A DNA stretch of 64,000 nt from a bacterium (GCA_043771335.1 JAYVHM010000001.1:28773-92772); one strand, 5' to 3'. Positions 4,111 through 25,247 are shown, numbered from the stretch's first letter. Numbers and translations: made by a program. Notes: a model not told the origin generated them from the sequence alone.

Positions 4111-5904
4111 ATGCAACAAGAAATTAGAAATATCGCGATTATCGCCCATGTGGACCATGGAAAAACAACTCTTACTGACTCACTAATGCAGCAATGCGGT
4201 ACAGGAGAAAAAGGAGCAACGATGGACAGTAATGCACTAGAACAAGAGCGTGGTATTACCATTTATGCTAAAAATACTTCTGTAGATTACAAAGGTGTAA
4301 AGATAAATATTTTAGATACACCAGGTCATGCTGACTTTGGATCTGAGGTGGAGCGTGTATTACGTTCTATTGACTCGGTGTTGCTTGTTGTTGATGCTCA
4401 GGAAGGCCCTATGCCTCAGACACGTTTTGTACTTAAAAAATCTCTCGAGCTTGGATTAAAACCAATAGTAGTTATAAATAAAATTGATAAACCGGCAGCT
4501 GATGCATCTCGCGTGCATGATGAAGTGTTTGAATTATTTATGGAGCTAGGTGCTAATGATGAGCAGTTACAATTTTCAACAGTGTATGCTATAGGCCGTG
4601 ATGGTGTTGCTATGAAAAATGAATTAGACGAGCGTGTTAACCTTGACCCACTTTTAGATATGATTTTAGAAAAAGTTCCAAAAGCAACAGGTGATGTAAA
4701 TAATAAATTCAAAGCACAAGTATTTAATCTTGCATATGATAACTTCCTAGGTCGTATGGCGACGGCTCGTATTTATGATGGTAAAGTTAAAATGGGACAA
4801 ACTATTACAGTTATAAAGCCAACAGGTGAGACTAGAACTGGTAAGATTTCAAAAATGTTTGCCTTTCGTGGCATTTCAAGAGTAGAGGTACAAGAGGGTG
4901 TAGCTGGTGACATTGTGATGATCGCTGGATTCCCAGATATTTTTATTGGAGAGACTTTTGCAGAAGATGCTACACTGGAGCCAGTAAAAGCTATCAATGT
5001 AGATGAGCCAACTATCGCACTTTACTTCCTTGTTAATGATTCACCATTTGCAGGAAAAGAAGGTAAATTTGTAACTACAAGACAAATCAGAGATAGACTA
5101 GAAAAAGAATTAGAGGTTAACGTGGGTATGCGTGTTAATTTTGATGGAGATAGATATGAAGTGTTCGGACGTGGTGAGATGCATGTGTCAGTATTACTCG
5201 AGACTATGCGCCGTGAAGGATTTGAACTTCAGGTGTCACAACCGAAAGTTATCATACACACTCTTGCTGATGGAAGTAAAGAAGAGCCATATGAGGAGGT
5301 GGTAATAGACGTACCGACAGAACACAGCGGTATCGTTATGGAGAAAATGGGTAAACGTAAAGGTATGATCACAGACATGAATGAAAAAGACGGCACTACT
5401 CGTATCAAGGCCGAGATACCAACTCGTGGATTACTTGGTTACCGTGGAGAATTTATCGTAGATACTAAAGGTCTCGGTATCTTATCAGCAAGATTTACAA
5501 AATTTGGACCGTATGCTGGAACTATTGACCGTCGTGACGTAGGATCTATGACATCTATGGAAACAGGTAAGGCACTTGGATTCTCTCTTTGGAACTTGCA
5601 AGATCGTGGTGTTATGTATATACATCCAGCTACTGAGGTATATGAGGGTATGATCGTAGGTAATACAAGCAAGGGAGAGGAGATGATGGTGAATCCAACA
5701 AAAGGTAAACAATTATCAAATATGCGTTCATCAGGAGCTGATGAAGCCATAACTCTTGTTCCTCCATTTGAGATTAGTATCGAGCGTGGACTTGAAATCA
5801 TGAATGCTGATGAATACTTAGAGATAACTCCAAAATCAGTAAGACTTCGTAAACAGCTTTTAACTGATACAGAGAGATCAAAGAATAAAAGAAAAGATAA
5901 TTAA
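4111..5904 (+). CDS. typA: Translational GTPase TypA/BipA
   Basis: The G1 motif 'AIIAHVDHGKTTL' and G3 'DTPGHADF' are present. The protein is 597 aa with an EF-G-like domain order. Confidence 0.9.
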   Translation: MQQEIRNIAIIAHVDHGKTTLTDSLMQQCGTGEKGATMDSNALEQERGITIYAKNTSVDYKGVKINILDTPGHADFGSEVERVLRSIDSVLLVVDAQEGPMPQTRFVLKKSLELGLKPIVVINKIDKPAADASRVHDEVFELFMELGANDEQLQFSTVYAIGRDGVAMKNELDERVNLDPLLDMILEKVPKATGDVNNKFKAQVFNLAYDNFLGRMATARIYDGKVKMGQTITVIKPTGETRTGKISKMFAFRGISRVEVQEGVAGDIVMIAGFPDIFIGETFAEDATLEPVKAINVDEPTIALYFLVNDSPFAGKEGKFVTTRQIRDRLEKELEVNVGMRVNFDGDRYEVFGRGEMHVSVLLETMRREGFELQVSQPKVIIHTLADGSKEEPYEEVVIDVPTEHSGIVMEKMGKRKGMITDMNEKDGTTRIKAEIPTRGLLGYRGEFIVDTKGLGILSARFTKFGPYAGTIDRRDVGSMTSMETGKALGFSLWNLQDRGVMYIHPATEVYEGMIVGNTSKGEEMMVNPTKGKQLSNMRSSGADEAITLVPPFEISIERGLEIMNADEYLEITPKSVRLRKQLLTDTERSKNKRKDN

Positions 5905-5947
5905 TTTGCCTAAACTCTAAAATTTGTTTTTATTCTAAATATAACAC

Positions 5948-5978
5948 AAAAATACTCTTATATATTAAGAGTATTTTT
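5948..5978. terminator. Bidirectional intrinsic terminator between convergent typA and dnaB
   Basis: The palindrome AAAAATACTCTTA-TATAT-TAAGAGTATTTTT has A/T runs on both sides. Confidence 0.55.
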
Positions 5979-6006
5979 ATGTTAAAAAGTATATATTCGT
6001 TTTCAT

Positions 6007-7458
6007 CTAAAAACCGCTCACGCTCATTGCTGGCATTTGAAAATCTCCAAATGCGTCCTCGGCGACTTCTGAGAAGCTGGTAGTCTTTGCATCGAACATT
6101 AACTTGACCATTCCTGTAGCACCATTACGATGTTTTTCTATCAGTAACTCTACCACATTATTATTCTGAGCCTGCTCACCATACTTCTCTTCACGATGTA
6201 TGAACATAACCACGTCAGCATCCTGCTCGATTGATCCTGAGTCACGAAGGTCGGACAGGCGAGGTTTACCTCCACGCTGTTCTACATTACGACTTAGCTG
6301 TGATAGAGCGATTACGGGGCAGTTGAACTCTTTTGCTAACACTTTTAATGATTTAGATATATCACTCACCTGATGCACCATGCTATCAAAATTTTTAGTA
6401 GTGCTCATAAGTTGTAAGTAGTCCACTATGATTAACCCTACAGGCTTCTCAGCGCGTAACCTACGTAACACTGAGCGCATGTTCACAATGTTATTAGCTG
6501 GCGTATCGTCTATGAATATCGGAGCTTTTGACAATTCATTTAGTCCTTGTTGCAGTCTCTCTATGTCATGTTCCATAGATAATTTCCCAGTACGCAGTTT
6601 CCAGCCATCCACATGTGACTGAGCAGCTAGCATACGGTCAAAAAGCTGCTCTTTACTCATTTCCAATGAGAATATTGCAGTGTGCACATTATGCTTCACG
6701 GCTGCTGAACGGGCAAAGTCTAACATGAGTGATGACTTACCAACAGACGGACGGGCAGCTAAAATAATTAAGTCAGATTTTTGAAATCCAGATAGTTTGT
6801 GATCAACAGAAGAGAAGCCAGTCGGCACGCCACGCAGACTACCATCGTCACCCTGCATCATTTCTATTCTTTCCCAGGCACCGTCTATTAGCTCAGCTAA
6901 TTTTACTAATTTCCCGGCACCAGTTCCAAAACTAGTTATCTCAAATATATCTTTTTCTGCTGTCTCTAATATATGTTCTACTTCGTGTTTTTCTTCGTAA
7001 CTTACATCGGCTATTTTTGTACTAACTTCTATGAGCCTTCTTAAGAGTTCTTTCTTTTTTAAAATAGTCGCATAGTATTTTATATTTGCAGCAGATGCTA
7101 CGAAATTAGAAAGCTCAGCCAAATAAGCTGGTCCACCTATTTGATCTAAAATATTTTTTTGTTTTAATTTATTATTGAGCGAGATTAGGTCTACCGGTTC
7201 CTTTGCAGCAGTTAACTCTTGCATTGTATTCCATATGCTTCTGTGTTTTTCTGCATAGAAACTTTTCTCTCGTATCAAATCTTCTATATCATAGTAACTT
7301 TCAGGTGAGATGATGATAGCGCCGAGCAGAGCACGCTCACTATCTATATCTTGAGGAGGCACACGCATACCATCAAATGGATTCTTGCTATCATATCTTC
7401 TATTCTTGTCTCCAAAATTATCATATTTCTTTTTATATTCTTTTTGTGAGTCTGACAT
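6007..7458 (-). CDS. dnaB: Replicative DNA helicase DnaB
   Basis: The protein is 483 aa with a RecA-like C-domain and a Walker A 'ARPSVGKSS'. The motifs 'GLIIVDYLQLM' and 'ALSQLSR' are typical of DnaB. Confidence 0.9.
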   Translation of the reverse strand: MSDSQKEYKKKYDNFGDKNRRYDSKNPFDGMRVPPQDIDSERALLGAIIISPESYYDIEDLIREKSFYAEKHRSIWNTMQELTAAKEPVDLISLNNKLKQKNILDQIGGPAYLAELSNFVASAANIKYYATILKKKELLRRLIEVSTKIADVSYEEKHEVEHILETAEKDIFEITSFGTGAGKLVKLAELIDGAWERIEMMQGDDGSLRGVPTGFSSVDHKLSGFQKSDLIILAARPSVGKSSLMLDFARSAAVKHNVHTAIFSLEMSKEQLFDRMLAAQSHVDGWKLRTGKLSMEHDIERLQQGLNELSKAPIFIDDTPANNIVNMRSVLRRLRAEKPVGLIIVDYLQLMSTTKNFDSMVHQVSDISKSLKVLAKEFNCPVIALSQLSRNVEQRGGKPRLSDLRDSGSIEQDADVVMFIHREEKYGEQAQNNNVVELLIEKHRNGATGMVKLMFDAKTTSFSEVAEDAFGDFQMPAMSVSGF

Positions 7459-7692
7459 GATATTTTTTAATTTATTATTTTTGTAAAAAGATATTAAGTT
7501 ATTTCTTATTTATAATTATAATATTTTAACAGTTATATATCTAGACTATGCAAGTCAAATATCTGTGTATTATGTGTAGAAGTCAAAATAATCATAAAAA
7601 TATAACTCTTGCATTTCAAAGACTTTTGTTGTAGTATGTAAAAGTAAGCCTATTTTAGGTTCTAAATCAACTTTTAAAGAAAGAGGTACAAA

Positions 7693-7998
7693 ATGGCAAC
7701 TTCCAGATTCATACAGGCCGCAGTAAGAGCCTTAGATCACACTGTCCAGAATAATCCTAACTGCGTCTGCAGTATTGATTTTAAGAATTCGCAAATTCTC
7801 CCATTCTTTCGAATTAATAATGTGCCAGAGTTTTTAAAAAATACAGAAGTAAAGCATTATAAAGTTACTATAAAAATAGTTGATTCTACTAAAAAAATCT
7901 CAAAAGTTATTTATAAAATACATAGGTCTCATCAACGTTGGTGGTTCAGGATCATTGAAGAAACTGAACTGGATGAATTCATAGAAATAGATGGTTAA
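7693..7998 (+). CDS. Hypothetical protein (101 aa)
   Basis: An ORF with a downstream hairpin terminator. No motif was recognised. Confidence 0.35.
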   Translation: MATSRFIQAAVRALDHTVQNNPNCVCSIDFKNSQILPFFRINNVPEFLKNTEVKHYKVTIKIVDSTKKISKVIYKIHRSHQRWWFRIIEETELDEFIEIDG

Positions 7999-8007
7999 AT
8001 TAAGATA

Positions 8008-8036
8008 AATGCGCAAAATATTGCGCATTTTTATTT
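8008..8036. terminator. Bidirectional intrinsic terminator
   Basis: The hairpin AATGCGCAA-AATA-TTGCGCATT is followed by TTTTATTTT, between convergent genes. Confidence 0.55.
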
Positions 8037-8046
8037 TATTTATTTA

Positions 8047-8715
8047 TTATTTCCTAAAACTAAAAGCAGATTTAAAAGTATCATGATCTATATACTCCAT
8101 CTCAAGACCAGTAGACACACCACGAGCTAACATTGAGATTTTTACTTTATCCATACCAACTACTTGGGTTATGGTTTTTTTAATATATTCCACCTGATTA
8201 TCACCTTCGTCATTCGCTGGTAATGCAAATATTATCTCAGATAAATTAGCAGTTTTCTCTTCTGAGTTTTCTTGATTTTCTACTCTAGAATCTAATTTCT
8301 TTCTAAGTATTTCCACCAGCTCACGTATTCTTATATGCTCTCGAGGGTCATCGACAAGGAAAGGTAACTTACCTCCGGTTACAAAGTATACACCACTATA
8401 CTCAGAAGTTTTTTCTATGGCATTTACGTCTAATTCTTTTTCTACGATTAATACTACTTTTCTGTCTCTGCTTTCGTCACTACAAATATTACATAATTTA
8501 TTTTTCTCAACATTTACATTTGTATTAGAAAAAAAAGAATAACACTCAGCACATTGTGAGCTATTTAATTTTATATTCAAAATATTTTTGGATAAGCTAT
8601 CTATAAAGTTTTTATTCTGTTTCATCAAGTAATAAGCAAAACGCTCAGCCTGCTTTGGGCCGATACCAGGTAATCTCTGTAAATCTGCTATGAGGCTATC
8701 TTTTACGTTATTCAT
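8047..8715 (-). CDS. recR: Recombination protein RecR
   Basis: The N-terminal HhH motif 'LPGIGPKQAERFAYYL' is present, followed by a C4 zinc finger 'CAECYSF...CNICS' and a Toprim domain. The protein is 222 aa. Confidence 0.85.
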   Translation of the reverse strand: MNNVKDSLIADLQRLPGIGPKQAERFAYYLMKQNKNFIDSLSKNILNIKLNSSQCAECYSFFSNTNVNVEKNKLCNICSDESRDRKVVLIVEKELDVNAIEKTSEYSGVYFVTGGKLPFLVDDPREHIRIRELVEILRKKLDSRVENQENSEEKTANLSEIIFALPANDEGDNQVEYIKKTITQVVGMDKVKISMLARGVSTGLEMEYIDHDTFKSAFSFRK

Positions 8716-8763
8716 AGGTTTTGAGTTATTTTCTTTGTTAATTATAGCATATTTACAGCTTCA

Positions 8764-8772
8764 TGCTATAAT
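8764..8772 (+). promoter_or_regulatory. Extended -10 promoter element TGCTATAAT
   Basis: Exact TGnTATAAT match 24 nt upstream of the 8796 ATG. Confidence 0.45.
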
Positions 8773-8795
8773 TATAATTCGAACAATATAAATAT

Positions 8796-9962
8796 ATGCA
8801 AAAAAAAGTAAATATAAAAAAGTTTTTATCAAAATTCACACAAAATACACTTTTAAAACAACTTTTTGAAATGCATCATAATGAGATAGATAAAAAGGGA
8901 AAGAAAAAATTCACTGTGCCAAATATAATGGATGGAAAAAATGATGAGAAGGTCACTGATGACTGGTATGAATTTTACAAAAGTCTTGAATTAGAAGATA
9001 GAGAAAATATAAATGAAAGCATAGAAAAAATAAATCTACTTTGTAATAAAGATTCTAATGACATATATAAAAATTACACCAGCAAGACTGACCCCACAGC
9101 AAATGAGGTAATAGCATTTTCATTCCACGATAAGGGGCTCGCATTTTTTATTGACCATTTTGAAAAGTTTGAAGATATTATATTTATAATTTCTTTTTAT
9201 AAAAAAAATAGCTGGAAAAGATTTGAAGCAAAAGGTGCCGTAGAAAAAGATATAGAAGTTATAGATGAGGAGTTAAAAGAAAAATATTCTGAGTATCTAG
9301 AAGCGGTTATTGGGAGTAGTGTGGGAGCGAGTCTCGAAGTTAAAACTTTAAAACATGACAATATGTTCATGACTAATATTTCTTATCGTGATGGTGGCAT
9401 TAAAAATATTTCGCTAGTTTACCTCTTTGAGCATCAAGAAGTTATGGTAAAAGCATCAGGTAACAAAGAAGTACAGTTCGCCTACGCAGAAATGTATATG
9501 AAGAAGGTCAATGGCTTTGCTATGGATTATAAAGAGATGAGTTATGACCTGGATACTTTTGTTAACTTGGAAGATTTTAAAGCACCACTTCAAGACAATA
9601 CAAATGTGAATGCTTGGGCAGTTAAAAGTGTAAAGTTAATTAGTGGCAGAAGTCAGATTAATATTACTTTTAAATTAAGCGATGAAGAGAAGTATATGCA
9701 AGGCATGCATAATACTTTTGAGAATCTAAACATGTTAGAAGGTCTAAAATCTGGAATACACAAGATAAATAACGTTAGCTTTAACATGCAAGTAACCGGT
9801 GAAGATTATAACAAGGGCAAGAAAAATGTTGGGGTTATAATAAAAGAAAACGCCACCAACCTGAATATATTAAAAAAGGAACACAGGCTAATAGATAAAA
9901 TCTTAAAAGATAGGGCAGTAGCGACAGGGTATAAAGACATAGAAATCAGCAAGCAAAAATAG
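8796..9962 (+). CDS. Hypothetical protein (388 aa), immediately upstream of tRNA-Glu
   Basis: A long, Lys/Glu-rich ORF. No motif was recognised. Confidence 0.45.
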   Translation: MQKKVNIKKFLSKFTQNTLLKQLFEMHHNEIDKKGKKKFTVPNIMDGKNDEKVTDDWYEFYKSLELEDRENINESIEKINLLCNKDSNDIYKNYTSKTDPTANEVIAFSFHDKGLAFFIDHFEKFEDIIFIISFYKKNSWKRFEAKGAVEKDIEVIDEELKEKYSEYLEAVIGSSVGASLEVKTLKHDNMFMTNISYRDGGIKNISLVYLFEHQEVMVKASGNKEVQFAYAEMYMKKVNGFAMDYKEMSYDLDTFVNLEDFKAPLQDNTNVNAWAVKSVKLISGRSQINITFKLSDEEKYMQGMHNTFENLNMLEGLKSGIHKINNVSFNMQVTGEDYNKGKKNVGVIIKENATNLNILKKEHRLIDKILKDRAVATGYKDIEISKQK

Positions 9963-14354: not shown

Positions 14355-15377
14355 ATGGAAAATAATAATTTAAATACAAATAAAAAAGTTTTAGTTAGTG
14401 GAGTACAGAGTAGTGGCAAGTTACATATTGGTAATTACTTTGGAGCATTAAAACAAAACATAGACTTGGCCAACAGTGGAGAATACGAGAGTAATATATT
14501 TATAGCTGATTATCACAGCATGACAACTCAGACCAATGCAAAACAGAGAAGGGAGGATATTTTAGATATAGCCTGCGTGTACTTAGCTTGCGGATTAGAT
14601 GTTACAAAAACCAATCTATTCAAACAGTCAGATGTGCCAAGTCACACAGAATTATCTTGGATATTATCTACTGTAACACCCATGCCCATGCTTGAGCTCG
14701 CCCATGCTTACAAAGACAAACAAGGAAAGGAGGAAGATCGTCACCTCGTTAATGCAGGGCTTTTTACTTATCCAGTTCTGATGGCTGCGGATATATTAAT
14801 GTATAATGCAGAAGTTGTTCCAGTTGGAAAAGATCAAGAACAACACGTAGAGATAGCAAGAGAGATCGCTGGAAAATACAACAGGACTTATGGACAGACT
14901 TTTAAAATGCCACAAGCTTTTATAAAAAAAGAAGTAGCTATAGTACCAGGTGTTGATGGTAAAAAAATGAGTAAAAGTAAAAATAATTATATACCGATAT
15001 TTGCAACAGAAAATGAAATCACAAAAGCAGTTATGAGTATAGTCACAGATAGTGCGAGACCAGAAGAGAGAAAGGATTCTCAAAATAATAACATTTATAA
15101 CATACATAAATTATTTTTAAATAACGAAGAAGCAGAGAGTCTAAAAAAAAGATATGAAGAGTCTAGCGTAGAAAAACCATTTGGTTATGCTGAAGCAAAA
15201 AAAGAGTGTGCAAAAGCAGTTATAAATTATTTTTCTAATATGTCAGAAAAATATAATTATTATAAAAATAATAGAGCAGAAGTAGAGCAAATATTAGTCG
15301 CAGGTGCATCAAAAGCGAATCAAAAAGCAAAAGAAATGATGACAAAAATAAGACAAGATACAGGTTTAGATTTTTAA
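14355..15377 (+). CDS. trpS: Tryptophanyl-tRNA synthetase
   Basis: The HIGH-type motif 'KLHIGNYFG' and the KMSKS motif 'KKMSKSK' are present. The protein is 340 aa. Confidence 0.9.
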   Translation: MENNNLNTNKKVLVSGVQSSGKLHIGNYFGALKQNIDLANSGEYESNIFIADYHSMTTQTNAKQRREDILDIACVYLACGLDVTKTNLFKQSDVPSHTELSWILSTVTPMPMLELAHAYKDKQGKEEDRHLVNAGLFTYPVLMAADILMYNAEVVPVGKDQEQHVEIAREIAGKYNRTYGQTFKMPQAFIKKEVAIVPGVDGKKMSKSKNNYIPIFATENEITKAVMSIVTDSARPEERKDSQNNNIYNIHKLFLNNEEAESLKKRYEESSVEKPFGYAEAKKECAKAVINYFSNMSEKYNYYKNNRAEVEQILVAGASKANQKAKEMMTKIRQDTGLDF

Positions 15378-15388
15378 TAAATATCCGT

Positions 15389-15417
15389 TTGACTTTATTT
15401 GTGGTGTATAGTATAAT
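15389..15417 (+). promoter_or_regulatory. Sigma70-type promoter TTGACT-17 nt-TATAAT
   Basis: TTGACT at 15389..15394, a 17-nt spacer, and TATAAT at 15412..15417, lying upstream of the 15473 gene. Confidence 0.5.
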
Positions 15418-15472
15418 GATATTAATTTAAGTATCTAACTCTAAATTAATAATAATATAAAAAATAAAGATT

Positions 15473-16516
15473 ATGCAAAAAGTTCAATTAACGTTCAAAC
15501 CGAAAGCAGTTTCTAAGAAATTACTAAATGCTCTTAATCCTAGGACAAAAGAAGTTATAACCAAACGTTATGGCTTACTTGATAATGAGAGAAAAACTTT
15601 AGAGTCTATAGGAAAGGAATATGGTATCACAAGAGAGAGAGTTAGACAAATAGAAAACTTCGCATTGGGCACAATACGCAAGTCACAAGATTACAAAGAT
15701 CATCAAAACGTTTTTGAAGAATTAGCCGAAGTAGTAAAAAACATGGGCTCAGTAGTTCCAGAGGACATATTAATGGAAGTATTTTCTAATGATAAAGTAG
15801 TACATAATCACATGAACTTTTTTATGACTGTTTCGGATAAATTCAATAGGCACAAGGAAGATGATAACTTTAATCACAGATGGAGCATAGATGACAAGAT
15901 AGCAACACATGTGCATGACGCACTTACTAACTTACACACTACAGTAAGTAAGGACGAACTCTTAAAAGAAGAAGATATAATAGCTAGATTCTTAGCTAAC
16001 CTTATAGATCTTGGAGATGATTACAAAAATAATCGTGAAGTTATAGATAGATATCTAAAAATCTCAAAGATAATCTCTAAAAATCCACTCAATGAATGGG
16101 GTCATGTCTCTAGCCCATCTGTAAAAGCAAGAGGAATAAAAGACTTTGCATATTTGATATTACGCAAAAATGGAACCCCTATGCATTTTCGTGAAGTAGC
16201 TAATACTATAAACAAAACTTTTAATAAAAATGCTCATGTCGCTACTTGCCATAATGAATTAATAAAAGACAAGAGATTCGTATTAGTAGGGCGTGGTATG
16301 TACGGATTGCGTGAGTGGGGTCAAGTAGGGGGAACAGTTAAGGACCTTATCAACATCGTCATTAATGAAGCAGGTGAGAAAATGAAAAAAGATGACATTG
16401 TAAGAAAAGTATTAGAACTTCGTGACGTAAAAGAGAATACTGTTTTAGTTAATCTTAACAATCCAAAATTATTTAAGAAATTAGCAGATAATCACTACAA
16501 TGTGCTTTCAAAATAA
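15473..16516 (+). CDS. Putative transcription factor: N-terminal sigma-70 region-4-like HTH plus C-terminal HARE-HTH (RNAP delta N-domain-like) winged helix
   Basis: The N-terminal 'LESIGKEYGITRERVRQIENFAL' matches the sigma70 region 4 consensus. The C-terminal 'MHFREVANTINKTF...FVLVGRGMYGLREWG' matches the HARE-HTH 'G.Y/WGLR.W' signature. Confidence 0.5.
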   Translation: MQKVQLTFKPKAVSKKLLNALNPRTKEVITKRYGLLDNERKTLESIGKEYGITRERVRQIENFALGTIRKSQDYKDHQNVFEELAEVVKNMGSVVPEDILMEVFSNDKVVHNHMNFFMTVSDKFNRHKEDDNFNHRWSIDDKIATHVHDALTNLHTTVSKDELLKEEDIIARFLANLIDLGDDYKNNREVIDRYLKISKIISKNPLNEWGHVSSPSVKARGIKDFAYLILRKNGTPMHFREVANTINKTFNKNAHVATCHNELIKDKRFVLVGRGMYGLREWGQVGGTVKDLINIVINEAGEKMKKDDIVRKVLELRDVKENTVLVNLNNPKLFKKLADNHYNVLSK

Positions 16517-16544
16517 TCTAATAAATATTTTACATATACACAAT

Positions 16545-16577
16545 AAAAATACTCACATCGAAAATGTGAGTATTTTT
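16545..16577 (+). terminator. Intrinsic terminator
   Basis: AAAAATACTCACAT-CGAAA-ATGTGAGTATTTTT. Confidence 0.6.
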
Positions 16578-16578
16578 C

Positions 16579-16587
16579 TGCTATAAT
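16579..16587 (+). promoter_or_regulatory. Extended -10 TGCTATAAT only 6 nt before the ATG, indicating a leaderless mRNA
   Basis: An exact TGnTATAAT ends 6 nt upstream of the 16594 ATG, and no Shine-Dalgarno sequence is possible. Confidence 0.45.
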
Positions 16588-16593
16588 GTATGT

Positions 16594-18165
16594 ATGCAAA
16601 TCGCTTTAGATATTCTCTTATTAATAATTTATATATCTATACTTTTACTTTTGTGCACCTATGTCTGGAGATTCTGGCTAATGTATGTGCAACAAAGATT
16701 CTTATCTAAAATGGATTGGGTACTATTAGAAATAAAGCTACCAAGAGAAATAAACAAATCCCCAGAAGCTATGGAAATAGTAGCCAACGCCTTTTTACAA
16801 AGTGGTGGTGTCGCTCAGTGGTATAAAAGGAACTGGCTTGGTAACTTAGTTACTTATTTTTCCTTAGAGATAGCCTCTCTTGAGGGTGATGTTAGATTTT
16901 TTGTCCGCACAGAGAGAAAGTTCAAGGAGCTTGTCACCAATAATTTCTATTCTCAATATCCAGGCATAGAGATAACAGAGGCAGATGACTATGTTAAAAA
17001 AATATATTATGATCACAGACAGACAGATGTTTCTATATGGGGACTCTCTAATACTTTTGGGGATAGATTTAATTTACCTAAAATAAATAAAGAGAGAGTA
17101 GTATTAGAAGATAAAGATTTAGAACTACCTGCTGATTATAAAATGCTTAAAACTTATGTTGATTATGGTCTAGACAGAGACCCAAAAGAAGAGTTTAAGC
17201 ATGACGCATTAACTCCTATTTTAGAATGGTTAGGCTCGATGAGAAAAGGTGAACATGCTTGGTATCAAGTAATAGTTCAGGATGCTAGTAAATTCGACGG
17301 TAAGACTTTTCCAAAAACTTATGAAAATGTAAAAACCCATGAATCTTTTACATTAAAAGAATTAGCTGAGGAAAGAAAAAAACAAATCAGAACAAAAATA
17401 ATAGGTCCAACATACAAAAAAGGAGACAAGATTTTTGATGATTTTGGATATCCAAAAATGACAAAGCAGAAAATAGGTGTGGATTCGGAGGGAAAAGCTA
17501 TTTTTGAAGATGTGCAAATGGAGTGGCAAAAAGATCAAGAAATGTCAACAGAAAGTGTAAAAGAAAATGAAATCTTTGAGGAATACAAAGACGAGATAAA
17601 AATGATTAATAGGAAATTACAAAAACCACTACTGCGTGCGCTTATAAGGGTTGTATACATTGCAGATTCTAACTATCATAAGACCGGGGCTAATGTCCAA
17701 TCATTACTTAGTGTATTCAAACAATATACCGGCCCTGGCTTTAATTCTTTTAGGCCATCACCGACTGACCCTTATGATTACAGCTGGGAAAACAGTTACA
17801 AAAAGAGAGTGCCGTGGCGCAGTGAAGAGTGTTTTGAATCTTATGTAGAACGCGAAGCCTTTTATCCACATTTACCAAATAGAGGTAGTGCAAAATCTAC
17901 TTTAGGTAAAATGTTTTTAAATGGTGGCATAGACTGGTATTCTGATGTTCATCTTTTTAAAAAATCTATGGGCTTTAGAAAGATTTTTAGATTAATTTAT
18001 GAAGGTATATTCCATCCATTTTATCACATGACACCGAGCCTCATGACTATTAACCTTGAAGAATTAGCTTCTCTGTGGCACTTGCCTGGCACAGTAGCTA
18101 CAACCCCTGGAATTAAGAGAGTAGACAGTTTAAAAAGCGATGCTCCTAGCGACTTACCTAGGTAG
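16594..18165 (+). CDS. Hypothetical membrane-anchored protein (523 aa)
   Basis: An N-terminal TM helix is followed by a large soluble domain. No Walker motif or other motif was recognised. Confidence 0.5.
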   Translation: MQIALDILLLIIYISILLLLCTYVWRFWLMYVQQRFLSKMDWVLLEIKLPREINKSPEAMEIVANAFLQSGGVAQWYKRNWLGNLVTYFSLEIASLEGDVRFFVRTERKFKELVTNNFYSQYPGIEITEADDYVKKIYYDHRQTDVSIWGLSNTFGDRFNLPKINKERVVLEDKDLELPADYKMLKTYVDYGLDRDPKEEFKHDALTPILEWLGSMRKGEHAWYQVIVQDASKFDGKTFPKTYENVKTHESFTLKELAEERKKQIRTKIIGPTYKKGDKIFDDFGYPKMTKQKIGVDSEGKAIFEDVQMEWQKDQEMSTESVKENEIFEEYKDEIKMINRKLQKPLLRALIRVVYIADSNYHKTGANVQSLLSVFKQYTGPGFNSFRPSPTDPYDYSWENSYKKRVPWRSEECFESYVEREAFYPHLPNRGSAKSTLGKMFLNGGIDWYSDVHLFKKSMGFRKIFRLIYEGIFHPFYHMTPSLMTINLEELASLWHLPGTVATTPGIKRVDSLKSDAPSDLPR

Positions 18166-18199: not shown

Positions 18200-19084
18200 A
18201 TGAAATTACACAAAAGAAGTCCTATGTATAAATATAAAAAAACATTATTAGTTTTATTCATAACTGCAATTACTTATTTCTTTTACCTTATATTAGTTCC
18301 AGTTAACATAAACGATAACTACTATTTTGAAATAGAAAATGGAGACAATGTGAACACTGTTGCCAGTAAGCTAGAAAAAGAGAATATGATTAGGTCTACT
18401 ATTTTATTTAAAATTCTAATCACACAAAGTCTTGGTGATAAAAAATTAGCCTATGGAAAATATAATATAAAAAAATACAGACTAGGCAGTGAAAACATAA
18501 ATATGTTAGGAGTAATAGACATACTAGTTAACAAAAAAAATTACACTCCTGGCTACGCACTAGTAATTCCAGAAGGGTTTACATTAGAAGAGATAAGCAG
18601 TAGAGTGGCAAAAGTTTTCAATATATCTTATGATGAGTTCTATAAATATGCAAAAAATAAAAATGGCTACCTATATCCTGAGACATATTATTTCCCTCAA
18701 AACGTAACAAAGGAGGAAATAGTTACAAAGATGCTTGCTGAATTTGAAAAAGGTGTAGGTATAATATCGAAAGAAGACCTAATATTAGCTAGCTTAGTAG
18801 AAGGGGAAGGTAAAGATGCAGAAGACATGAAGATGATTGCTGGAATACTAATGAATAGGATAAAAATAGGAATGGCCCTGCAGGTAGACGTAGCGCCTAT
18901 CACTTACAAAAGCAGAGACCTTCCAAAAGAGCCAATAAATAATCCAGGACTGACAGCAATAGAAGCTGTTAGAAACCCTACAAAGTCAAAATATCTTTAT
19001 TACATAACTGGAAATGACGGTAATTTTTACTACACTGAAACATACCCAGAACATGTAAAGAATATTAAAAAATATTTAAAGTAA
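18200..19084 (+). CDS. mltG: Endolytic murein transglycosylase MltG (YceG-like)
   Basis: An N-terminal TM helix is present. The C-terminal 'LPKEPINNPGLTAIEAVRNPTKSKYLYYITGNDGNFYYTETYPEHVKNIKKY' matches the YceG/MltG signature. The real start is probably M9 at 18224. Confidence 0.7.
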   Translation: MKLHKRSPMYKYKKTLLVLFITAITYFFYLILVPVNINDNYYFEIENGDNVNTVASKLEKENMIRSTILFKILITQSLGDKKLAYGKYNIKKYRLGSENINMLGVIDILVNKKNYTPGYALVIPEGFTLEEISSRVAKVFNISYDEFYKYAKNKNGYLYPETYYFPQNVTKEEIVTKMLAEFEKGVGIISKEDLILASLVEGEGKDAEDMKMIAGILMNRIKIGMALQVDVAPITYKSRDLPKEPINNPGLTAIEAVRNPTKSKYLYYITGNDGNFYYTETYPEHVKNIKKYLK

Positions 19085-19166: not shown

Positions 19167-19946
19167 TTATGTTACCAAAGCAAATAATACAGGACAATCA
19201 AAACCGCTATCACGATCATCTTTGAAACTTATTCTTGGTTTGATGTAACCCAAAAGATTATCTATTTGAATTCTACTGGCATCATCCACATCAAAGAGAA
19301 TAAAATTATTAGCAACAGTCCTATTACTTATTTCTTTTTTATAAAATAAATAAGCTAAAGCATTTGGACTATTCACAAAATCTTCTGTAATATCTTTGAG
19401 GTTTTTCATACCAATACCATGACCTGGGGAGAATAATGTCTTAACGATGATTACACTGGCATCTCTTTTTTGTTTTAGCATGCGTAACTCTAGAAGTATT
19501 AGTTCGTAAATCTTGCTAGTTTTTTCTTTAGCTACATCAAGGTAATTTGGAGCAATACTATCTGTTCCACCTGGATACAGTATATGAAAAATATCTTGCC
19601 ATAAATCATCGTCAGATGCCGGAGCAAAAGCAAGGAAGGTGGTAAGTGGGTAAGCTGCTGTAATTTCTAGTCCTTCAGAATAATTAGAACATTTGACTAC
19701 AGTCTGTCCTTCTTTTAGATTTGGACTTTTCAGTTTTATAAATTTCTCTAATTTTCTAATTTTTACTGTTGCTTCTGCTTGAGTATTCTTATAGATATCA
19801 TTAATTGATTTCTGAAGTCGTACAACTTCAAAGAGTTTCTTGTCTGTAATATTATGCTTATAGGCTAGAAAGATTCGATTATTTTTAATAAGTCCGATCA
19901 TAAACTTACGCAGATCTAAGGCTTCTAGTTTTGTAAATTCTACCAT
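19167..19946 (-). CDS. Hypothetical protein (259 aa)
   Basis: A long ORF with no motif recognised. Confidence 0.45.
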   Translation of the reverse strand: MVEFTKLEALDLRKFMIGLIKNNRIFLAYKHNITDKKLFEVVRLQKSINDIYKNTQAEATVKIRKLEKFIKLKSPNLKEGQTVVKCSNYSEGLEITAAYPLTTFLAFAPASDDDLWQDIFHILYPGGTDSIAPNYLDVAKEKTSKIYELILLELRMLKQKRDASVIIVKTLFSPGHGIGMKNLKDITEDFVNSPNALAYLFYKKEISNRTVANNFILFDVDDASRIQIDNLLGYIKPRISFKDDRDSGFDCPVLFALVT

Positions 19947-20729: not shown

Positions 20730-22346
20730 ATGAATGACATATTTACAAGTCAAAAAAGACAAGATACTTTACTGATAGAAAAATACAGTACTGACGCTAG
20801 CATTTTTAAAGTGACACCAAGAGAAGCTATAGAGTCTGTGGATTTTAAAAATGTAATCGAATCCATAAAAAACAAGGAAAAGTTTTCAGTTAGAGCCGCT
20901 GGAACATGCATGAGTGGTGGGTCGCTAACTAATGAAAAAGTAATACGTATAAAACCTATAAAAAACTTTAAACTTAAATCGGGAGACATAAATACAGAAA
21001 ATCCTTCTGACGACACTCAGAACATATCAGAATACATATGGGTTGATTCTAATATATATATAAAAGACTTATTAGAAGAATTAAAAAAAAGAAATAAGTT
21101 TTTTGCACCTTATACTAGCTCAAAAGACGTTTGCATGTTATCTGGAATGATAGGTAATAACAGTAGTGGAGAAAAGTCACTAACTTACGGACCAACTAGT
21201 AGAAATATTTCAGAATTAAAAGTTATATTAAATACAAAAGAACTTTATGGTGAAGTGTATCACGCCAAAGAAAAGAAAATAATGGAGAGTGATGGCTTAG
21301 AAAGATATGACTACAAATTTGAAGAAGAGATAGTAAATATAATAAAAAACAATCTAGAAATAATAAATAAAAATAAACCAACTACCAATAAAAATGCTGC
21401 TGGATATAACATGTGGGATGTGTACGATTCAGAAAAGAATACTTTTAATCTAACTCCACTTTTTATAGGAGCGCAGGGGACACTAGGTATAGTTACAGAA
21501 GCAAAAATAAAAATAAAAAATATTTTAAAATTTGAGTGTATGCTTATTATACCGCTTAGTAACATACATGAATTACCAAGTGTAGTTAAGGAAGCAGTGA
21601 GTGGTGGCGCCACTAGTGTTGAATGTTTTGATCATGAGACTTATGAATTAGCTAAAATACACATGGCTCAAGATTCAAAACTAGCAAATTACGCTAATAA
21701 TAAAAAAATAGTTATATTTGCAGAATTCTGCAATGATAAAATATCTGTAAATAAAAATAAAATAAATCTATTAAAAAATAATTTACATAAATTAGGAATA
21801 AATAGTTACTTGACAGAAAATATAGAAGAGAGCCAGGCTTATTGGAACATAAGGAGAGCAAGCTTTAAATTACTAAGAGACTTTGCTCCAAAGGGATACA
21901 AAGCGATACCAATCATAGAGGATACTATTATTTCACTCGAACATTATGACAACTACTTAAAAGAGTTGCTTGAAATACTTTACAAATATGACATGCGTTA
22001 TACTTATGCTGGACATATCGGAGATGGATCCATAAGACTAATACCACTTATAAGAAAAGACCAAACAGGAGCAAAAGAGGATATTTTAAATATGGCCGAC
22101 GAAGTATACACACTAGTCAAAAAATACAATGGTAGTATTAGCTGTGATCACAATGATGGACTCGCTCGCACTTATGCACTAAGCATGCAGTATGACGAGG
22201 AAATACTACATATATTCAAAGATATAAAATCTATTTTAGATTATAATAACATACTTAACCCGGGCAAGAAAATCACTCATTGTAAAAATTACAATAATAA
22301 TAGAGAAGCAAGGGAGTATGTATTAAAAAATATTTATCTAGCTTAG
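20730..22346 (+). CDS. FAD-linked oxidoreductase (PCMH-type FAD-binding, GlcD/D-lactate dehydrogenase-like)
   Basis: The N-terminal part has an FAD-binding-domain pattern 'VRAAGTCMSGGSL'. The 538-aa length is consistent with the family. Confidence 0.55.
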   Translation: MNDIFTSQKRQDTLLIEKYSTDASIFKVTPREAIESVDFKNVIESIKNKEKFSVRAAGTCMSGGSLTNEKVIRIKPIKNFKLKSGDINTENPSDDTQNISEYIWVDSNIYIKDLLEELKKRNKFFAPYTSSKDVCMLSGMIGNNSSGEKSLTYGPTSRNISELKVILNTKELYGEVYHAKEKKIMESDGLERYDYKFEEEIVNIIKNNLEIINKNKPTTNKNAAGYNMWDVYDSEKNTFNLTPLFIGAQGTLGIVTEAKIKIKNILKFECMLIIPLSNIHELPSVVKEAVSGGATSVECFDHETYELAKIHMAQDSKLANYANNKKIVIFAEFCNDKISVNKNKINLLKNNLHKLGINSYLTENIEESQAYWNIRRASFKLLRDFAPKGYKAIPIIEDTIISLEHYDNYLKELLEILYKYDMRYTYAGHIGDGSIRLIPLIRKDQTGAKEDILNMADEVYTLVKKYNGSISCDHNDGLARTYALSMQYDEEILHIFKDIKSILDYNNILNPGKKITHCKNYNNNREAREYVLKNIYLA

Positions 22347-23377
22347 TGAGGATGCGTGTGAATATTTTTTTCATTACTAGAAACCAAATATACAGCAATT
22401 ACTGTTGTCAGTGGTATAGCCAATAATAACCCTACAGAGCCGATAAGTGATCTAAATATTTCTGTAGCTATTATTTCTTTATTTAATAAAAATACTGGGT
22501 CTAATTTACTAGTATACATGAGTAAGAGTAACGGTAAGGCAGAACCAACATAAGCAAGGACAAGGGTATTAATCATAGCCCCAGCATGATCTGACCCTAC
22601 ACGCATAGCTCTTTTATAATATTCTGCGTTACTTAAATTTTTATTTGCATGTTTTAACTCAGCCACTATTCCTGCTTGAGTTATAGCACCATCATCCACC
22701 ACACCTATTACTCCTATTATTATGCTAGCTATTACCAGAAGTGGGAAATTAATAATTCCTTCTGTATTAAAATATAAATAAGAGCTTGTCTCATCTACAA
22801 ATCCAGTTATATTTGCATTAATAATAGTTAGATAAGAAATAATTATAGTTATAAAAATAGAAATAGAGCAACCAAGCAATGCAGAATGTGTTACTCTATT
22901 ATTACCATGAGTTAAAAACATAACGGAAAACAATAAACAAATAGAAATAAAACTTGCAACCAGTACTGGATTGTATCCTTTTAAAGTTAATGGGAGTAGT
23001 ATAAAAAATATAATACCAAGTGAGACCAGAAGTGAAGATAGAGCTCTAAGACCTTTTTTTCCAAATACAACAACTATGACAGATATAAATAAAAATAAAG
23101 TTATTAAAATAGAATTATATTTTACAGATTCTCCAAGATTATAATAAATAGAACCATCTATTTCTTTTATTTCCTCTAAAAAAACTCTATCTCCTATCTC
23201 AAAAGCATATCCATTTGAGTATGTGTTTATTATTTTACCGATATTTTCACCTTCTAATATTTCAACTTCATAATTTGGGAAAAGTACTTCAGTATTAGTG
23301 CTATTAATTATTTTTACTACTTCTGATTTATAATTATTAACTTCTGGTAAAATTATTTTAACTTCATTTTTATTCAT
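22343..23377 (-). CDS. YibE/F-family integral membrane protein
   Basis: An N-terminal extracytoplasmic domain is followed by multiple TM helices, and the C-terminal region 'GSDHAGAMINTLVLAYVGSALPLLLL' is typical of YibE/F. Confidence 0.55.
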   Translation of the reverse strand: MNKNEVKIILPEVNNYKSEVVKIINSTNTEVLFPNYEVEILEGENIGKIINTYSNGYAFEIGDRVFLEEIKEIDGSIYYNLGESVKYNSILITLFLFISVIVVVFGKKGLRALSSLLVSLGIIFFILLPLTLKGYNPVLVASFISICLLFSVMFLTHGNNRVTHSALLGCSISIFITIIISYLTIINANITGFVDETSSYLYFNTEGIINFPLLVIASIIIGVIGVVDDGAITQAGIVAELKHANKNLSNAEYYKRAMRVGSDHAGAMINTLVLAYVGSALPLLLLMYTSKLDPVFLLNKEIIATEIFRSLIGSVGLLLAIPLTTVIAVYLVSSNEKNIHTHPH

Positions 23378-23382
23378 ATATT

Positions 23383-23811
23383 TTAAGCACAGGACTTACA
23401 AAGTCCGTAAATATCTACAGAAGGGCTTGTGTTGACAGTAGAAAATTTTTTACTTTTCTTTACTAATTTTTTCAAAGACTCTTCAAAATAGCTGGCATTT
23501 ATTTTCTCCATAATCTCACAGTTATTACAAATAATTTTATGTACTACTTCATCGCTAGTCATCTCATAATGAGCATGACCGTGGTTATAGTCAAAACGAG
23601 ATATAATTCCTGATTCTTCTAATGATGTCAGGTTACGATAGACAGTGGCCTGATCTATATCATATCTTTTCTTTAAATCCTCTATTAATTTATGTACAGC
23701 TACTGGTGACTTGGATTTTGAGACTCGAGTTAACACAGCTAATCTGTGTTCAGTTAATTTTAAATCAGATTCTTTTATTAGACTTACCAATTCTGTTTCT
23801 GTGTATTTCAT
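23383..23811 (-). CDS. Fur-family metalloregulator (Fur/Zur/PerR-like)
   Basis: The protein is 142 aa with a winged-helix 'ATVYRNLTSLEESGII' and the metal-site residues 'HGHAHYEM' and 'CNNCEIM...CKSC'. Confidence 0.8.
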   Translation of the reverse strand: MKYTETELVSLIKESDLKLTEHRLAVLTRVSKSKSPVAVHKLIEDLKKRYDIDQATVYRNLTSLEESGIISRFDYNHGHAHYEMTSDEVVHKIICNNCEIMEKINASYFEESLKKLVKKSKKFSTVNTSPSVDIYGLCKSCA

Positions 23812-23824
23812 ATATTTTATAATT

Positions 23825-24403
23825 TTAATTATGTTTTCTATGAATATTAAAGGTTTTTAAAAGTAATCTTATGACAATTGCAAATAAAGAAGCTAAGGCC
23901 ACAGCTTCTAAAACTTCATGGTATTTTTCATTTATTTCTGTGCCTATATAATAAAAAATAAATGCAGAAATAGGCAAGCCCACTTGTGTATAAACTAAAT
24001 ATTTTATACTCTTTAAGAAAGTTTTTACTTCAGATATTATAATTAAATATGTTCCAAATATCTTAGGCAGTTCATGACCAAAAACAGATAAAAGTGTTCC
24101 CACTCCCAAGCTAGGATTAACATAAAAGGCAAAACCTATGATCGCTCCGTCTAAAAGAGAATGAATAAACTCTGTAAATATTAAAGCTTTTAACTCTTTC
24201 TTATGAGTGTGATTATGCGTAAAGTAAGTAATAAACAAGTAGACAAATATAAAGGAGAAGAAAACAATAATAAAACTTATTTTATTAAAATCATTTGAAT
24301 GCTCAAGTAATGAATCATAAAGTCCAAAACCAATAAACATAGACCCCAGTATTAGTGTAAAAGTTTGTATTTCTTTTTGATAATTTATAAAAAAGTTTTT
24401 CAT
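23825..24403 (-). CDS. Short ZIP-family (ZupT-like) divalent metal transporter
   Basis: Two ZIP signatures are present: the TM4 motif 'HSLLDGAIIG' and the TM5 motif 'GHELPKIFG'. The 192-aa length is short for the family. Confidence 0.55.
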   Translation of the reverse strand: MKNFFINYQKEIQTFTLILGSMFIGFGLYDSLLEHSNDFNKISFIIVFFSFIFVYLFITYFTHNHTHKKELKALIFTEFIHSLLDGAIIGFAFYVNPSLGVGTLLSVFGHELPKIFGTYLIIISEVKTFLKSIKYLVYTQVGLPISAFIFYYIGTEINEKYHEVLEAVALASLFAIVIRLLLKTFNIHRKHN

Positions 24404-24410
24404 GAATTTA

Positions 24411-24426
24411 TTGTATATTTATACAA
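24411..24426. promoter_or_regulatory. Candidate Zur/Fur-type operator palindrome in the divergent promoter
   Basis: TTGTATA-TT-TATACAA is a perfect 7-bp inverted repeat lying 8 nt from the ZIP-gene start codon, between the ZIP-Fur operon and the NAS gene. Confidence 0.4.
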
Positions 24427-24485
24427 AATATATCACAAATGCAAATAACTTGCAACTAGACAATAATTATGTTACTCTATGAAAA

Positions 24486-25247
24486 ATGAAAGATTTAAAG
24501 ATATTCCACAAAATATTAAACTTAAAATCCTTAAAACCTTCAAAAGAAACGAATGAGGCTTTTTCAGAATTAGTAAGATATTCTGAAAATAGCTTTAATA
24601 AAGTTAATCTAAATGAGTTAGAAATATTTAAACTTAGAAAACTTTCTTCTGAAGCAGAGTATGAGATGGAAGTACACTGGGCAGATAAAATAATAAAATC
24701 TAAAAACCCAAATGATGAACTTAAAAAGTTTTGGTATTATAAAAATTATGAAGATCTTGTAACTTTAGAACATATAAATATAATAAGTATAAATAAAAAA
24801 GTAAAGAAAGTTTTATTTGTAGGTGGTGGTCCATTACCACTAACAGCAATAGTATTAGCTACAAAATATAATAAAGATTGTATTGTACTAGAAAAAGATG
24901 AATTAAGTTTTTTAAAATCTTCTGAACTAATATCAAAATTAAAATTGGATAAACAGATAAAAATTATAAATATAAAAGCAGAAAATTATAACGCTTACAA
25001 TGAGTATGATTTAATTTACTTAGCAGCTCTGGTTGGGGAAAATGAAAAATCAAAGACTAAGACAGTCAATTATATCTACAAACGACTATGTAACAAAAGT
25101 TTATTTTTATGTAGATCGTCTCACGGAAGTAGAAAGATAATCTATAACCCTATTAATAAAAATATATTCAAAAAACTAAAACCCTTATTAGAAGTCAGGC
25201 CATATAGCTCCATAATTAATTCTTTTTTTATCTTGCAAAAAAATTAA
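24486..25247 (+). CDS. Nicotianamine synthase-like enzyme (NAS/CntL family, SAM-dependent aminobutyryl transferase)
   Basis: Three blocks align with plant and archaeal NAS. 'LKSLKPSKETNEAFSELV' aligns with 'LESLKPSKDVNILFKQLV'. 'KKVLFVGGGPLPLTAIVLA' aligns with 'VAFIGSGPLPLTSIVLA'. 'LIYLAALVGENEKSKTK...LFLCRSSHGSRKIIYNPI' aligns with 'VVFLAALVGMNKEEKVK...LMLRSAHGPRAFLYPIV'. Confidence 0.8.
   Translation: MKDLKIFHKILNLKSLKPSKETNEAFSELVRYSENSFNKVNLNELEIFKLRKLSSEAEYEMEVHWADKIIKSKNPNDELKKFWYYKNYEDLVTLEHINIISINKKVKKVLFVGGGPLPLTAIVLATKYNKDCIVLEKDELSFLKSSELISKLKLDKQIKIINIKAENYNAYNEYDLIYLAALVGENEKSKTKTVNYIYKRLCNKSLFLCRSSHGSRKIIYNPINKNIFKKLKPLLEVRPYSSIINSFFILQKN

Follow-up and report, generated by a model that had tools for sequence, protein, structure and literature searches.

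Organization of the Locus and Domain Content of the Sigma-4/HARE Protein

In a 64,000-nt stretch of bacterial DNA (GCA_043771335.1, JAYVHM010000001.1:28773-92772; the window, with positions counted from its first letter), an open reading frame (ORF) of 347 amino acids (aa) at 15473..16516 (+) was found to encode a protein that joins a helix-turn-helix (HTH) module of the type of sigma70 region 4 (sigma-4) to a HARE-HTH domain. This sigma-4/HARE gene is followed by a gene for a membrane-anchored protein of the DUF8128 family. The translation of the first ORF contains both GITRERVRQIENFAL and GRGMYGLREWG, and an earlier reading made from the sequence alone (the sequence-only reading) had proposed sigma70 region 4 and HARE-HTH as its domains. 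Profile searches bore this out: Pfam Sigma70_r4 matched aa 17-70 (E 2.3e-15; 56.3 bits, cut-off 24.1) and Pfam HARE-HTH matched aa 222-282 (E 1e-10; 42.3 bits, cut-off 25.9). Besides, the NCBIfam model RNAP_delt_lowGC (TIGR04567) matched aa 224-289 (44.3 bits, cut-off 42), so that the match to the delta model is internal and not N-terminal. The Pfam threshold for HARE-HTH was exceeded in all 69 aligned family members, and the G-x-W/Y-G-L-x-x-W wing motif of HARE-HTH was present, with R274, G275, Y277, L279, W282 and G283 invariant. The gene, its promoter and the domains of its product were as follows:

15389..15417 (+), sigma-A-type promoter of the sigma-4/HARE gene, with -35 TTGACT at 15389-15394, a 17-nt spacer and -10 TATAAT at 15412-15417
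15473..16516 (+), sigma-4/HARE gene, 347 aa, pI 9.4, net charge +11
15521..15682 (+), sigma70 region-4 HTH, aa 17-70 by Pfam and aa 10-70 in the structural model
15698..15892 (+), domain 2, aa 76-140 (78-138 in the model), acidic and winged-helix-like, net charge -7, order H-E-H-H-E-E in the model
15893..16120 (+), domain 3, aa 141-216, helical in the model, with an L-x-E-W-G wing motif at its end
16136..16318 (+), HARE-HTH domain, aa 222-282 by Pfam and 222-279 in the model, delta-type but basic, net charge about +8
16337..16504 (+), domain 5, aa 289-344, basic C-terminal winged helix, order H-E-H-H-E-E in the model

Sigma70_r2 and Sigma70_r3 did not match the 347-aa protein in the Pfam scan, and sigma regions 2 and 3 were absent both upstream of the gene and throughout the window. 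An acidic tail of delta type was also absent, as a basic winged helix makes up the last 59 aa (+3 in the 347-aa protein, family median +5). These absences agree with the sequence-only reading, and the protein is thus neither a sigma factor, since region 2 is absent, nor delta, from which it differs in tail and charge. A truncated or frameshifted rpoD was considered and rejected: the TrpRS gene ends at 15377, relatives have different genes upstream, and region 2 is found nowhere in the window. The gene is thus no remnant of a broken rpoD, TrpRS ending 95 nt before it, and the sequence-only reading had likewise seen no evidence of a full-length RpoD N-terminus upstream joined by frameshift. The 95-nt gap between TrpRS and the gene contains the promoter. 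No rpoD or rpoA was found in the window or in loci L001-L084. Matches of the 347-aa protein in PHROGs and PADLOC came through the sigma-4 part alone (sigma factor, MzaA), and these scans gave no sign of a defence system.

An AlphaFold2 model made with 69 homologues (pLDDT 89.5, pTM 0.74) showed five domains, i.e., the sigma-4 module and four winged-helix-type domains, so that 'minimal', as the factor had been described, does not fit it. Domain 2 had no family match. Domain 3 may, with low confidence, be a degenerate second HARE-like domain: an hhalign comparison with the HARE domain gave 46% probability over 8 columns only, and a divergent relative (L085) carries GLWGLEKW at the corresponding place. 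No significant hhalign match indicating internal duplication was obtained among the five domains. The winged-helix Pfam families WH_Rok and TBPIP gave weak matches in some family members, in which the matching domain was not localised. Matches to solved structures were at domain level only and comprised SigA sigma-4, delta and numerous winged helices that bind DNA; the whole five-domain architecture had no counterpart among solved structures.

Conservation of the -35-Reading Residues and Charge of the Domains

The sigma-4 module aligned without gaps to E. coli sigma70 541-600, and adding 530 to a residue number gives the sigma70 number. Thus, R24, R32, L43, E44, R54, E55, R56, R58, and Q59 correspond to sigma70 R554, R562, L573, E574, R584, E585, R586, R588, and Q589. 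In an alignment of 54 sequences from both major clades of the family (32-72% identity), R32, L43, G47, R54, E55, R56, R58, and Q59 were invariant (R562, L573, G577, R584, E585, R586, R588, and Q589 in sigma70), and R24, T42 (sigma70 R554, T572) and several core hydrophobic residues were conserved to at least 90%. Differences between the clades were seen at surface positions away from the DNA-contact face, e.g., 61-67. About 30 residues of the 347-aa protein are invariant family-wide. Genetic and crystallographic evidence has shown that sigma70 R584, E585, and R588 determine the recognition of -35 positions -31 and -33, and sigma peptides with region 4 alone bind promoter DNA (PMC2613000). The simplest reading of this pattern is that selection acts on recognition of TTGACA-type sequences.

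Family median net charges were +9 for sigma-4, -6 for domain 2, -2 for domain 3, +8 for the HARE domain and +5 for domain 5. Over the span aligned by HMMER, the HARE domain of the 347-aa protein carries +6 compared to -12 in the N-domain of S. aureus delta. Because the domain is strongly basic where delta is acidic, docking on the beta' jaw in the manner of delta appears doubtful. Manually entered sequences of sigma70 and RpoA from E. coli and of delta from B. subtilis served in some comparisons; for the sigma70 numbering and the contrast in charge, PDB sequences were used as a cross-check. For other members of the domain family, DNA binding by the HARE-HTH of ASXL1 has been demonstrated experimentally (PMC6591016), and HARE-HTH is regarded by Aravind's group as a reader of modified DNA (PMC10853773).

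Distribution of the Family

Relatives of the sigma-4/HARE protein were numerous: at least 7,990 of 8,000 scored candidates passed in a word-indexed search, and the best 120 had the same two Pfam domains, a length of 325-355 aa and 56-98% identity. Among 1.84 billion cluster representatives, at least 533 clusters (50% identity) were found at E < 1e-30, the best 150 being full-length and mostly of 320-390 aa, and a scan of one genome per species detected the family in at least 573 genomes. The length is uniform at about 345 aa. Informative source names were all of the Parcubacteria/Paceibacteria type (Nomurabacteria, Kaiserbacteria, Taylorbacteria, Vogelbacteria, Nealsonbacteria, Minisyncoccia, and Paceibacterota) within the candidate phyla radiation (CPR), as expected from the suggestion in the sequence-only reading that the protein is specific to reduced genomes. 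Four short contigs of 3-11 kb (L012, L057, L069, L075) come from metagenome-assembled genomes named Chitinophagales, Azotimanducaceae, Thermodesulfobacteriota, and Spirochaetaceae, and these non-CPR bin names are probably due to mis-binning. IMG/VR contained a single relative, and the gene is therefore cellular.

Sources annotate the protein as 'sigma factor-like helix-turn-helix DNA-binding protein', 'HARE-type protein' or 'DNA-directed RNA polymerase delta subunit'. The literature searched contained no description of the sigma-4/HARE family or of its pairing with a DUF8128 gene, no mention of DUF8128, and no paper naming PF05066. Bacterial HARE-HTH fusions were reportedly catalogued by Aravind and Iyer in 2012. 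Known domains make up the protein, and databases already list its architecture; its function, its conserved partners and the predicted leaderless partner gene presented below are undescribed in the literature searched.

Pairing with a DUF8128 Gene

Downstream of the sigma-4/HARE gene, the following features were identified:

16545..16577 (no strand assigned), palindromic, intrinsic-terminator-like hairpin between the two genes, with equivalents in L001 and L003
16579..16587 (+), extended -10 box TGCTATAAT without a -35, with +1 predicted at the first letter of the start codon (16594)
16594..18165 (+), gene for the 523-aa membrane-anchored DUF8128-family protein, which lacks a Walker A motif
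16603..16665 (+), N-terminal transmembrane segment of that protein, aa 4-24, from the sequence and a model helix of aa 2-38
18200..19084 (+), YceG/MltG-type endolytic transglycosylase, the conserved third gene (Pfam YceG, E 6e-52)

In the clade to which the window belongs, 71 loci contained enough downstream sequence, and 64 of these had a DUF8128 homologue directly downstream of the sigma-4/HARE gene, followed in 62 of the 64 by YceG/MltG. Median identity to the window proteins was 50% for sigma-4/HARE, 29% for DUF8128, 31% for YceG and 47% for RNase T, and sigma-4/HARE is the slowest-evolving gene of the block in this clade.

A sister clade with about 34-39% identity and names such as Nealsonbacteria showed a different organization around the same pair. 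All five loci examined had the order SecDF, sigma-4/HARE, DUF8128, P-loop ATPase and PGK, with gaps of 0-27 nt within the trio of sigma-4/HARE, DUF8128 and ATPase genes and of only 0-11 nt between the first two. Families matched by the ATPase were TrwB_AAD_bind, TraG-D_C and a treble-clef zinc finger, and below threshold it matched the NCBIfam models of the DNA-translocating ATPases TraD, VirD4-like and CedD. Metagenome contigs were also collected with the ATPase as query; DUF8128 immediately preceded it in 61 of 65 loci, and 51 of 56 loci carried all three genes. No other protein of the block was as well conserved as the ATPase (69% median identity vs. 41% for PGK); the ATPase was absent from the window and from L001-L085. 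In L086 (12333-13949), L087-L090 and L091-L170 it is a soluble protein with no transmembrane segment, a Walker A motif (GKTGMGKT) near the N-terminus and the treble-clef zinc finger at the C-terminus, and its conservation exceeds that of PGK and SecF. A total of 5,713 VirD4-type homologues, 148 of them near virB4, have been reported from 2,918 Patescibacteria genomes, with a different function left open (PMC12102498); an HTH partner is not mentioned in that report.

Since the flanking genes differ on both sides between the two clades, survival of the pairing through rearrangement argues for a functional link between sigma-4/HARE and DUF8128, and the DUF8128 protein appears to be a conserved partner rather than a mere neighbour.

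The 523-aa protein had been described in the sequence-only reading as having a single N-terminal transmembrane helix and no recognisable domain. The helix was supported by the hydrophobic segment and the model. The second part did not hold, as hhalign aligned the family profile to a PF26449 (DUF8128)-annotated protein from L086 with 100% probability (E 2.4e-43, columns 30-514). R26, R35, and K39 follow the transmembrane segment, and the large domain is therefore predicted by the positive-inside rule to be cytoplasmic. In the model (pLDDT 85.9, pTM 0.83), a long helix at the N-terminus precedes alpha/beta domains. Homologues numbered at least 1,360, with no Pfam annotation among the best 120; the local Pfam and NCBIfam scans gave no match for the 523-aa protein, and the same Pfam copy missed even PF26449-annotated proteins. 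One weak match was obtained in PHROGs (phrog_5156), and a sequence search of PDB with the DUF8128 profile gave none. The modelled fold may resemble the N-terminal part of VirB4, with 9% identity and Foldseek values against PDB that were insignificant (E > 0.01). No GxxxxGK[ST] motif and no match to a P-loop family were found in the protein (sequence, Pfam, NCBIfam).

Promoters and Predicted Leaderless Start of the DUF8128 Gene

The TTGACT-17-TATAAT promoter, already recognised in the sequence-only reading, scored 11 out of 12 and was the top site in a scan of 8 kb, leaving a 5' untranslated region of about 49 nt. The pattern was kept among relatives, as TTGACn, a spacer of 16-18 nt and TAnnnn were found in 71 of 81 distinct sequences, 57 of them with a TG extension; 6% of random 153-nt windows scored as high.

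Within the 160 nt upstream of the sigma-4/HARE gene, 26 of 134 loci contained a second TTGAC/GTCAA half-site 12-20 nt from another TTGAC, compared to 7.1 +/- 2.6 in shuffled sequences (maximum 14 in 200 shuffles). The pairs are palindromic (TTGACA-N4-9-TGTCAA) or tandem TTGAC, as in L019 (GCTTGACACTATGTCAAGG), and some overlap the -35. These extra half-sites could be an auto-operator or tandem promoters, and we regard them as a lead only. The near-consensus -35 of the sigma-4/HARE gene may itself be one of the sites of the protein.

For the DUF8128 gene, the ATG at 16594 lies exactly 6 nt past the TGCTATAAT box, from which a leaderless mRNA had been proposed. Comparison of loci gave this proposal further support: the distance from a TAnnnT box to the ATG was 6 nt in 31 loci, 7 nt in 12 and 8 nt in 10 (together 53 of 73), compared to about 3 per position as background, and no such peak was seen before the sigma-4/HARE, YceG or RNase T genes used as controls. 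Because the peak at 6-8 nt is unique to the DUF8128 gene among these, the comparison supports a leaderless, -35-independent design as a conserved property of this gene. In the 73 loci, the -10 box and the ATG often come directly after a terminator. These patterns suggest that leaderless translation is regular in Paceibacteria.

Fusion and Adjacency to RpoD

Three cluster representatives (P0386, P0335, and P0281) were unusually long. P0386 (766 aa, found on two contigs; L171, 6001-8301) is a complete RpoD-like sigma factor fused in frame to a full sigma-4/HARE protein; its sigma part contains regions 2, 3 and 4 and shows 50% identity to E. coli region 2. P0335 (552 aa; L172, 2540-4198) lies directly downstream of a gene for a 455-aa RpoD-like sigma factor, adjoins parB, and carries at its C-terminus an added DnaA domain IV (E 1e-22), a sequence-specific reader of double-stranded DNA. 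P0281 proved to be a SecF read-through of neighbouring genes. Fusion or adjacency to RpoD was thus seen in two of 172 loci, L171 and L172, which were also the only ones with a sigma region-2 gene nearby. In L172, two sigma-factor genes flank P0335, and their N-terminal segments are alike. A complete sigma factor with its own region 4 therefore coexists with the sigma-4/HARE protein, the latter has been joined to RpoD at least once in evolution, and further DNA-reading modules can be added to it.

Other Features of the Window

The window has about 31% G+C, and the neighbouring genes encode RecR, Pth, an S1-domain protein, a metallo-beta-lactamase (MBL)-fold protein, TrpRS, YceG/MltG, RNase T, a flavin adenine dinucleotide (FAD) oxidase, Fur and a Zip-like protein. 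Rfam detected one tRNA-Glu in the 64 kb and no RNA element in the sigma-4/HARE region. Between YceG and RNase T, an ORF of 259 aa (19167-19946, -) had no match in Pfam, NCBIfam or PHROGs; L001 and L003 contain a 64-aa ORF or nothing at this place, and the ORF looks like a lineage-specific insertion. A metal-homeostasis cluster at 22343-25247 comprises a YibE/F-like membrane protein, Fur, a fragment of a Zip-like transporter and a gene of the nicotianamine-synthase family (Pfam NAS, E 6e-45), a family uncommon in bacteria. In L014, the roughly 4 kb that follow the sigma-4/HARE gene (5018-8987) contain no ORF of at least 100 aa, which could be due to masked sequence or a different genetic code.

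Possible Functions of the Sigma-4/HARE Protein

The explanation that we favour, tentatively, is that the protein reads promoter DNA of the TTGACA type on its own, influences initiation that depends on sigma-A, and is coupled to the membrane protein DUF8128. Since all -35-reading residues of sigma70 are kept, the sigma-4 module is expected to bind TTGACA-type sites on double-stranded DNA, whereas the HARE-HTH domain and the winged helix at the C-terminus, both basic, would hold the DNA alongside, with the two acidic winged-helix-like domains between. The protein would then occupy or bridge -35-type sites genome-wide and thereby affect sigma-A-dependent initiation, and in Parcubacteria it would work with, or be controlled by, the DUF8128 protein encoded downstream, possibly by physical contact. 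Several points weigh against this explanation. The DNA specificity is predicted from homology, free sigma-4 binds DNA weakly in known cases, and sigma-4 may have a part in docking on the beta-flap. In the clade of the window, the DUF8128 gene stands behind a terminator and has a promoter of its own, so that its co-expression with sigma-4/HARE is not enforced, and both RpoD-linked cases come from divergent lineages with no DUF8128 neighbour. The extra TTGAC half-sites, present in about one-fifth of the loci, could be tandem promoters, and the VirD4-type ATPase of the sister clade fits DNA transport better than transcription.

In a possible but less likely explanation, the main rival, the protein would be the DNA-recognition or adaptor subunit of a membrane-anchored DNA-handling machine, with DUF8128, of possible likeness to the N-terminal part of VirB4, as anchor, a VirD4/FtsK-HerA-type ATPase as motor, and sigma-4/HARE selecting or loading the DNA, by analogy with the winged-helix gamma domain of FtsK or the relaxosome accessory proteins that serve coupling proteins. 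The trio found in all five sampled sister-clade loci and in most loci collected from the ATPase side, the coupling-protein families matched by the ATPase, its conservation above that of PGK, and the many VirD4-type homologues of open function with few near virB4 (PMC12102498) all support such a machine. However, the ATPase is missing from the window and from L001-L085, the third gene in the clade of the window is MltG instead, the rpoD-linked divergent relatives have no DUF8128, the likeness to VirB4 is insignificant in Foldseek, and there is no evident reason for a translocase to need a -35 reader. An RNA polymerase-bound, subunit-like factor, with sigma-4 on the beta-flap tip and/or the -35 and HARE on the beta' shelf and jaw, is close to the RNA polymerase-associated factor of the sequence-only reading; a link to sigma-dependent transcription is supported (P0386 fusion, P0335 adjacency), and a delta-like dock is doubtful (basic HARE domain). 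Both domain types come from RNA polymerase-bound proteins, the HARE domain passes the NCBI cut-off for delta, one relative is fused in frame to full RpoD, and conservation and promoter are of housekeeping grade. The RNA polymerase of Parcubacteria is stated to lack the alpha C-terminal domain (PMC8321222), but the alpha subunit is absent from the text of the work cited for it (PMC4508563); if true, this loss would leave room for another contact to upstream DNA. Nevertheless, we consider this explanation unlikely, as the charge of the HARE domain is opposite to that of delta, the acidic tail that carries the activity of delta is absent, only DNA contacts and core residues are conserved in sigma-4 with positions 61-67 varying, and 170 of the 172 loci have no sigma region-2 gene nearby. 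Moreover, flap tip and beta' jaw lie on opposite faces in RNA polymerase structures, and a compact protein of 347 aa is unlikely to span them.

It is still less probable that the protein is an ordinary local autoregulator, whose gene heads a small cluster for envelope or transport functions and which represses its own promoter and perhaps the downstream genes. Its position as first gene of the operon-like trio in the sister clade would suit this role, as would the extra TTGAC half-sites near its own -35 in 19% of the loci. But five domains, about 30 invariant residues and slower evolution than the supposed targets are unusual for a local repressor, and in the clade of the window a terminator precedes the extended -10, with no -35, that serves the DUF8128 gene; no conserved operator was noticed there. 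We give hardly any weight to the sigma-4/HARE protein being half of a two-subunit sigma factor that supplies region 4 to a partner with region 2 only. B. subtilis SigO-RsoA provides a precedent, and region 4 is indeed present and region 2 absent; but no region-2-only neighbour was found in 172 loci, and the adjacent or fused sigma factors are complete. The coexistence of a complete sigma factor, each with its own region 4, with the sigma-4/HARE protein weakens this split-sigma explanation.

A bolder combination, which we consider unlikely, is that the protein serves Parcubacteria as a detachable second '-35 reader' that couples promoter-type TTGACA sites of the chromosome to a membrane machine of DUF8128 and a VirD4/FtsK-type ATPase, for promoter-targeted tethering, translocation or uptake of DNA. 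Such a promoter-coupled machine, for which the C-terminal domain of the housekeeping sigma factor would have been co-opted, would have no described counterpart.

Experimental work on transcription in CPR bacteria appears scarce, and the family is present in hundreds of Parcubacterial species. If the favoured promoter-DNA reader does bind -35 hexamers alone, it would represent a novel type of global regulator or competitor at promoters, in hosts that appear poor in transcription factors. If it serves a DUF8128/ATPase module, it would help to explain the orphan VirD4-type ATPases of Patescibacteria (PMC12102498). Under either explanation the DUF8128 family gains a testable partner, and the conserved leaderless promoter is a separate testable statement on translation start in these bacteria.

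Comparison with Known Systems

Compared to the primary (group 1) sigma70 factors RpoD/SigA, the sigma-4/HARE protein has no regions 1.1, 2 and 3, and it would therefore neither open DNA nor bind the beta' coiled-coil. Its region 4 differs from that of RpoD/SigA in that the first helix of region 4.1 is truncated and four unrelated winged-helix-type domains follow. We know of no well-studied parallel for an intact -35-recognition domain outside any sigma factor. The delta subunit (RpoE) of Firmicutes, about 175 aa, consists of an acidic N-domain and a polyanionic tail that displaces nucleic acids (PMC7749165), whereas the HARE domain of sigma-4/HARE is basic and internal and no acidic tail follows. 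The same Pfam family includes the HARE-HTH domains of ASXL/HB1 and restriction enzymes, which bind DNA, including DNA with N6-methyladenine (PMC6591016; PMC10853773). Those domains are fused to nucleases, helicases, and chromatin enzymes, whereas no modification enzyme is fused or adjacent to sigma-4/HARE.

In VirB4 (TrwK) and the coupling proteins VirD4/TrwB/TraD, the corresponding domains are not split over two genes as they are here, and the possible likeness of DUF8128 to VirB4 comes with 9% identity and a Foldseek match that is not significant. No other type IV secretion genes and no relaxase were seen nearby, and the genes lie among housekeeping genes. Two kinds of known pairs offer functional analogies only, i.e., genes for a sigma factor and a membrane anti-sigma factor, and FtsK, in which the gamma winged-helix reader serves a membrane motor. 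The 523-aa protein has no anti-sigma domain and its predicted topology is opposite to that of anti-sigma factors, and no logic like that of the FtsK orienting polar sequences (KOPS) is known here. As in sigma/anti-sigma pairs, the gene for a sigma-derived DNA reader directly precedes that for a single-pass membrane protein; alternatively, as in FtsK, a winged-helix DNA reader would be associated with a membrane-anchored motor of the FtsK-HerA type.

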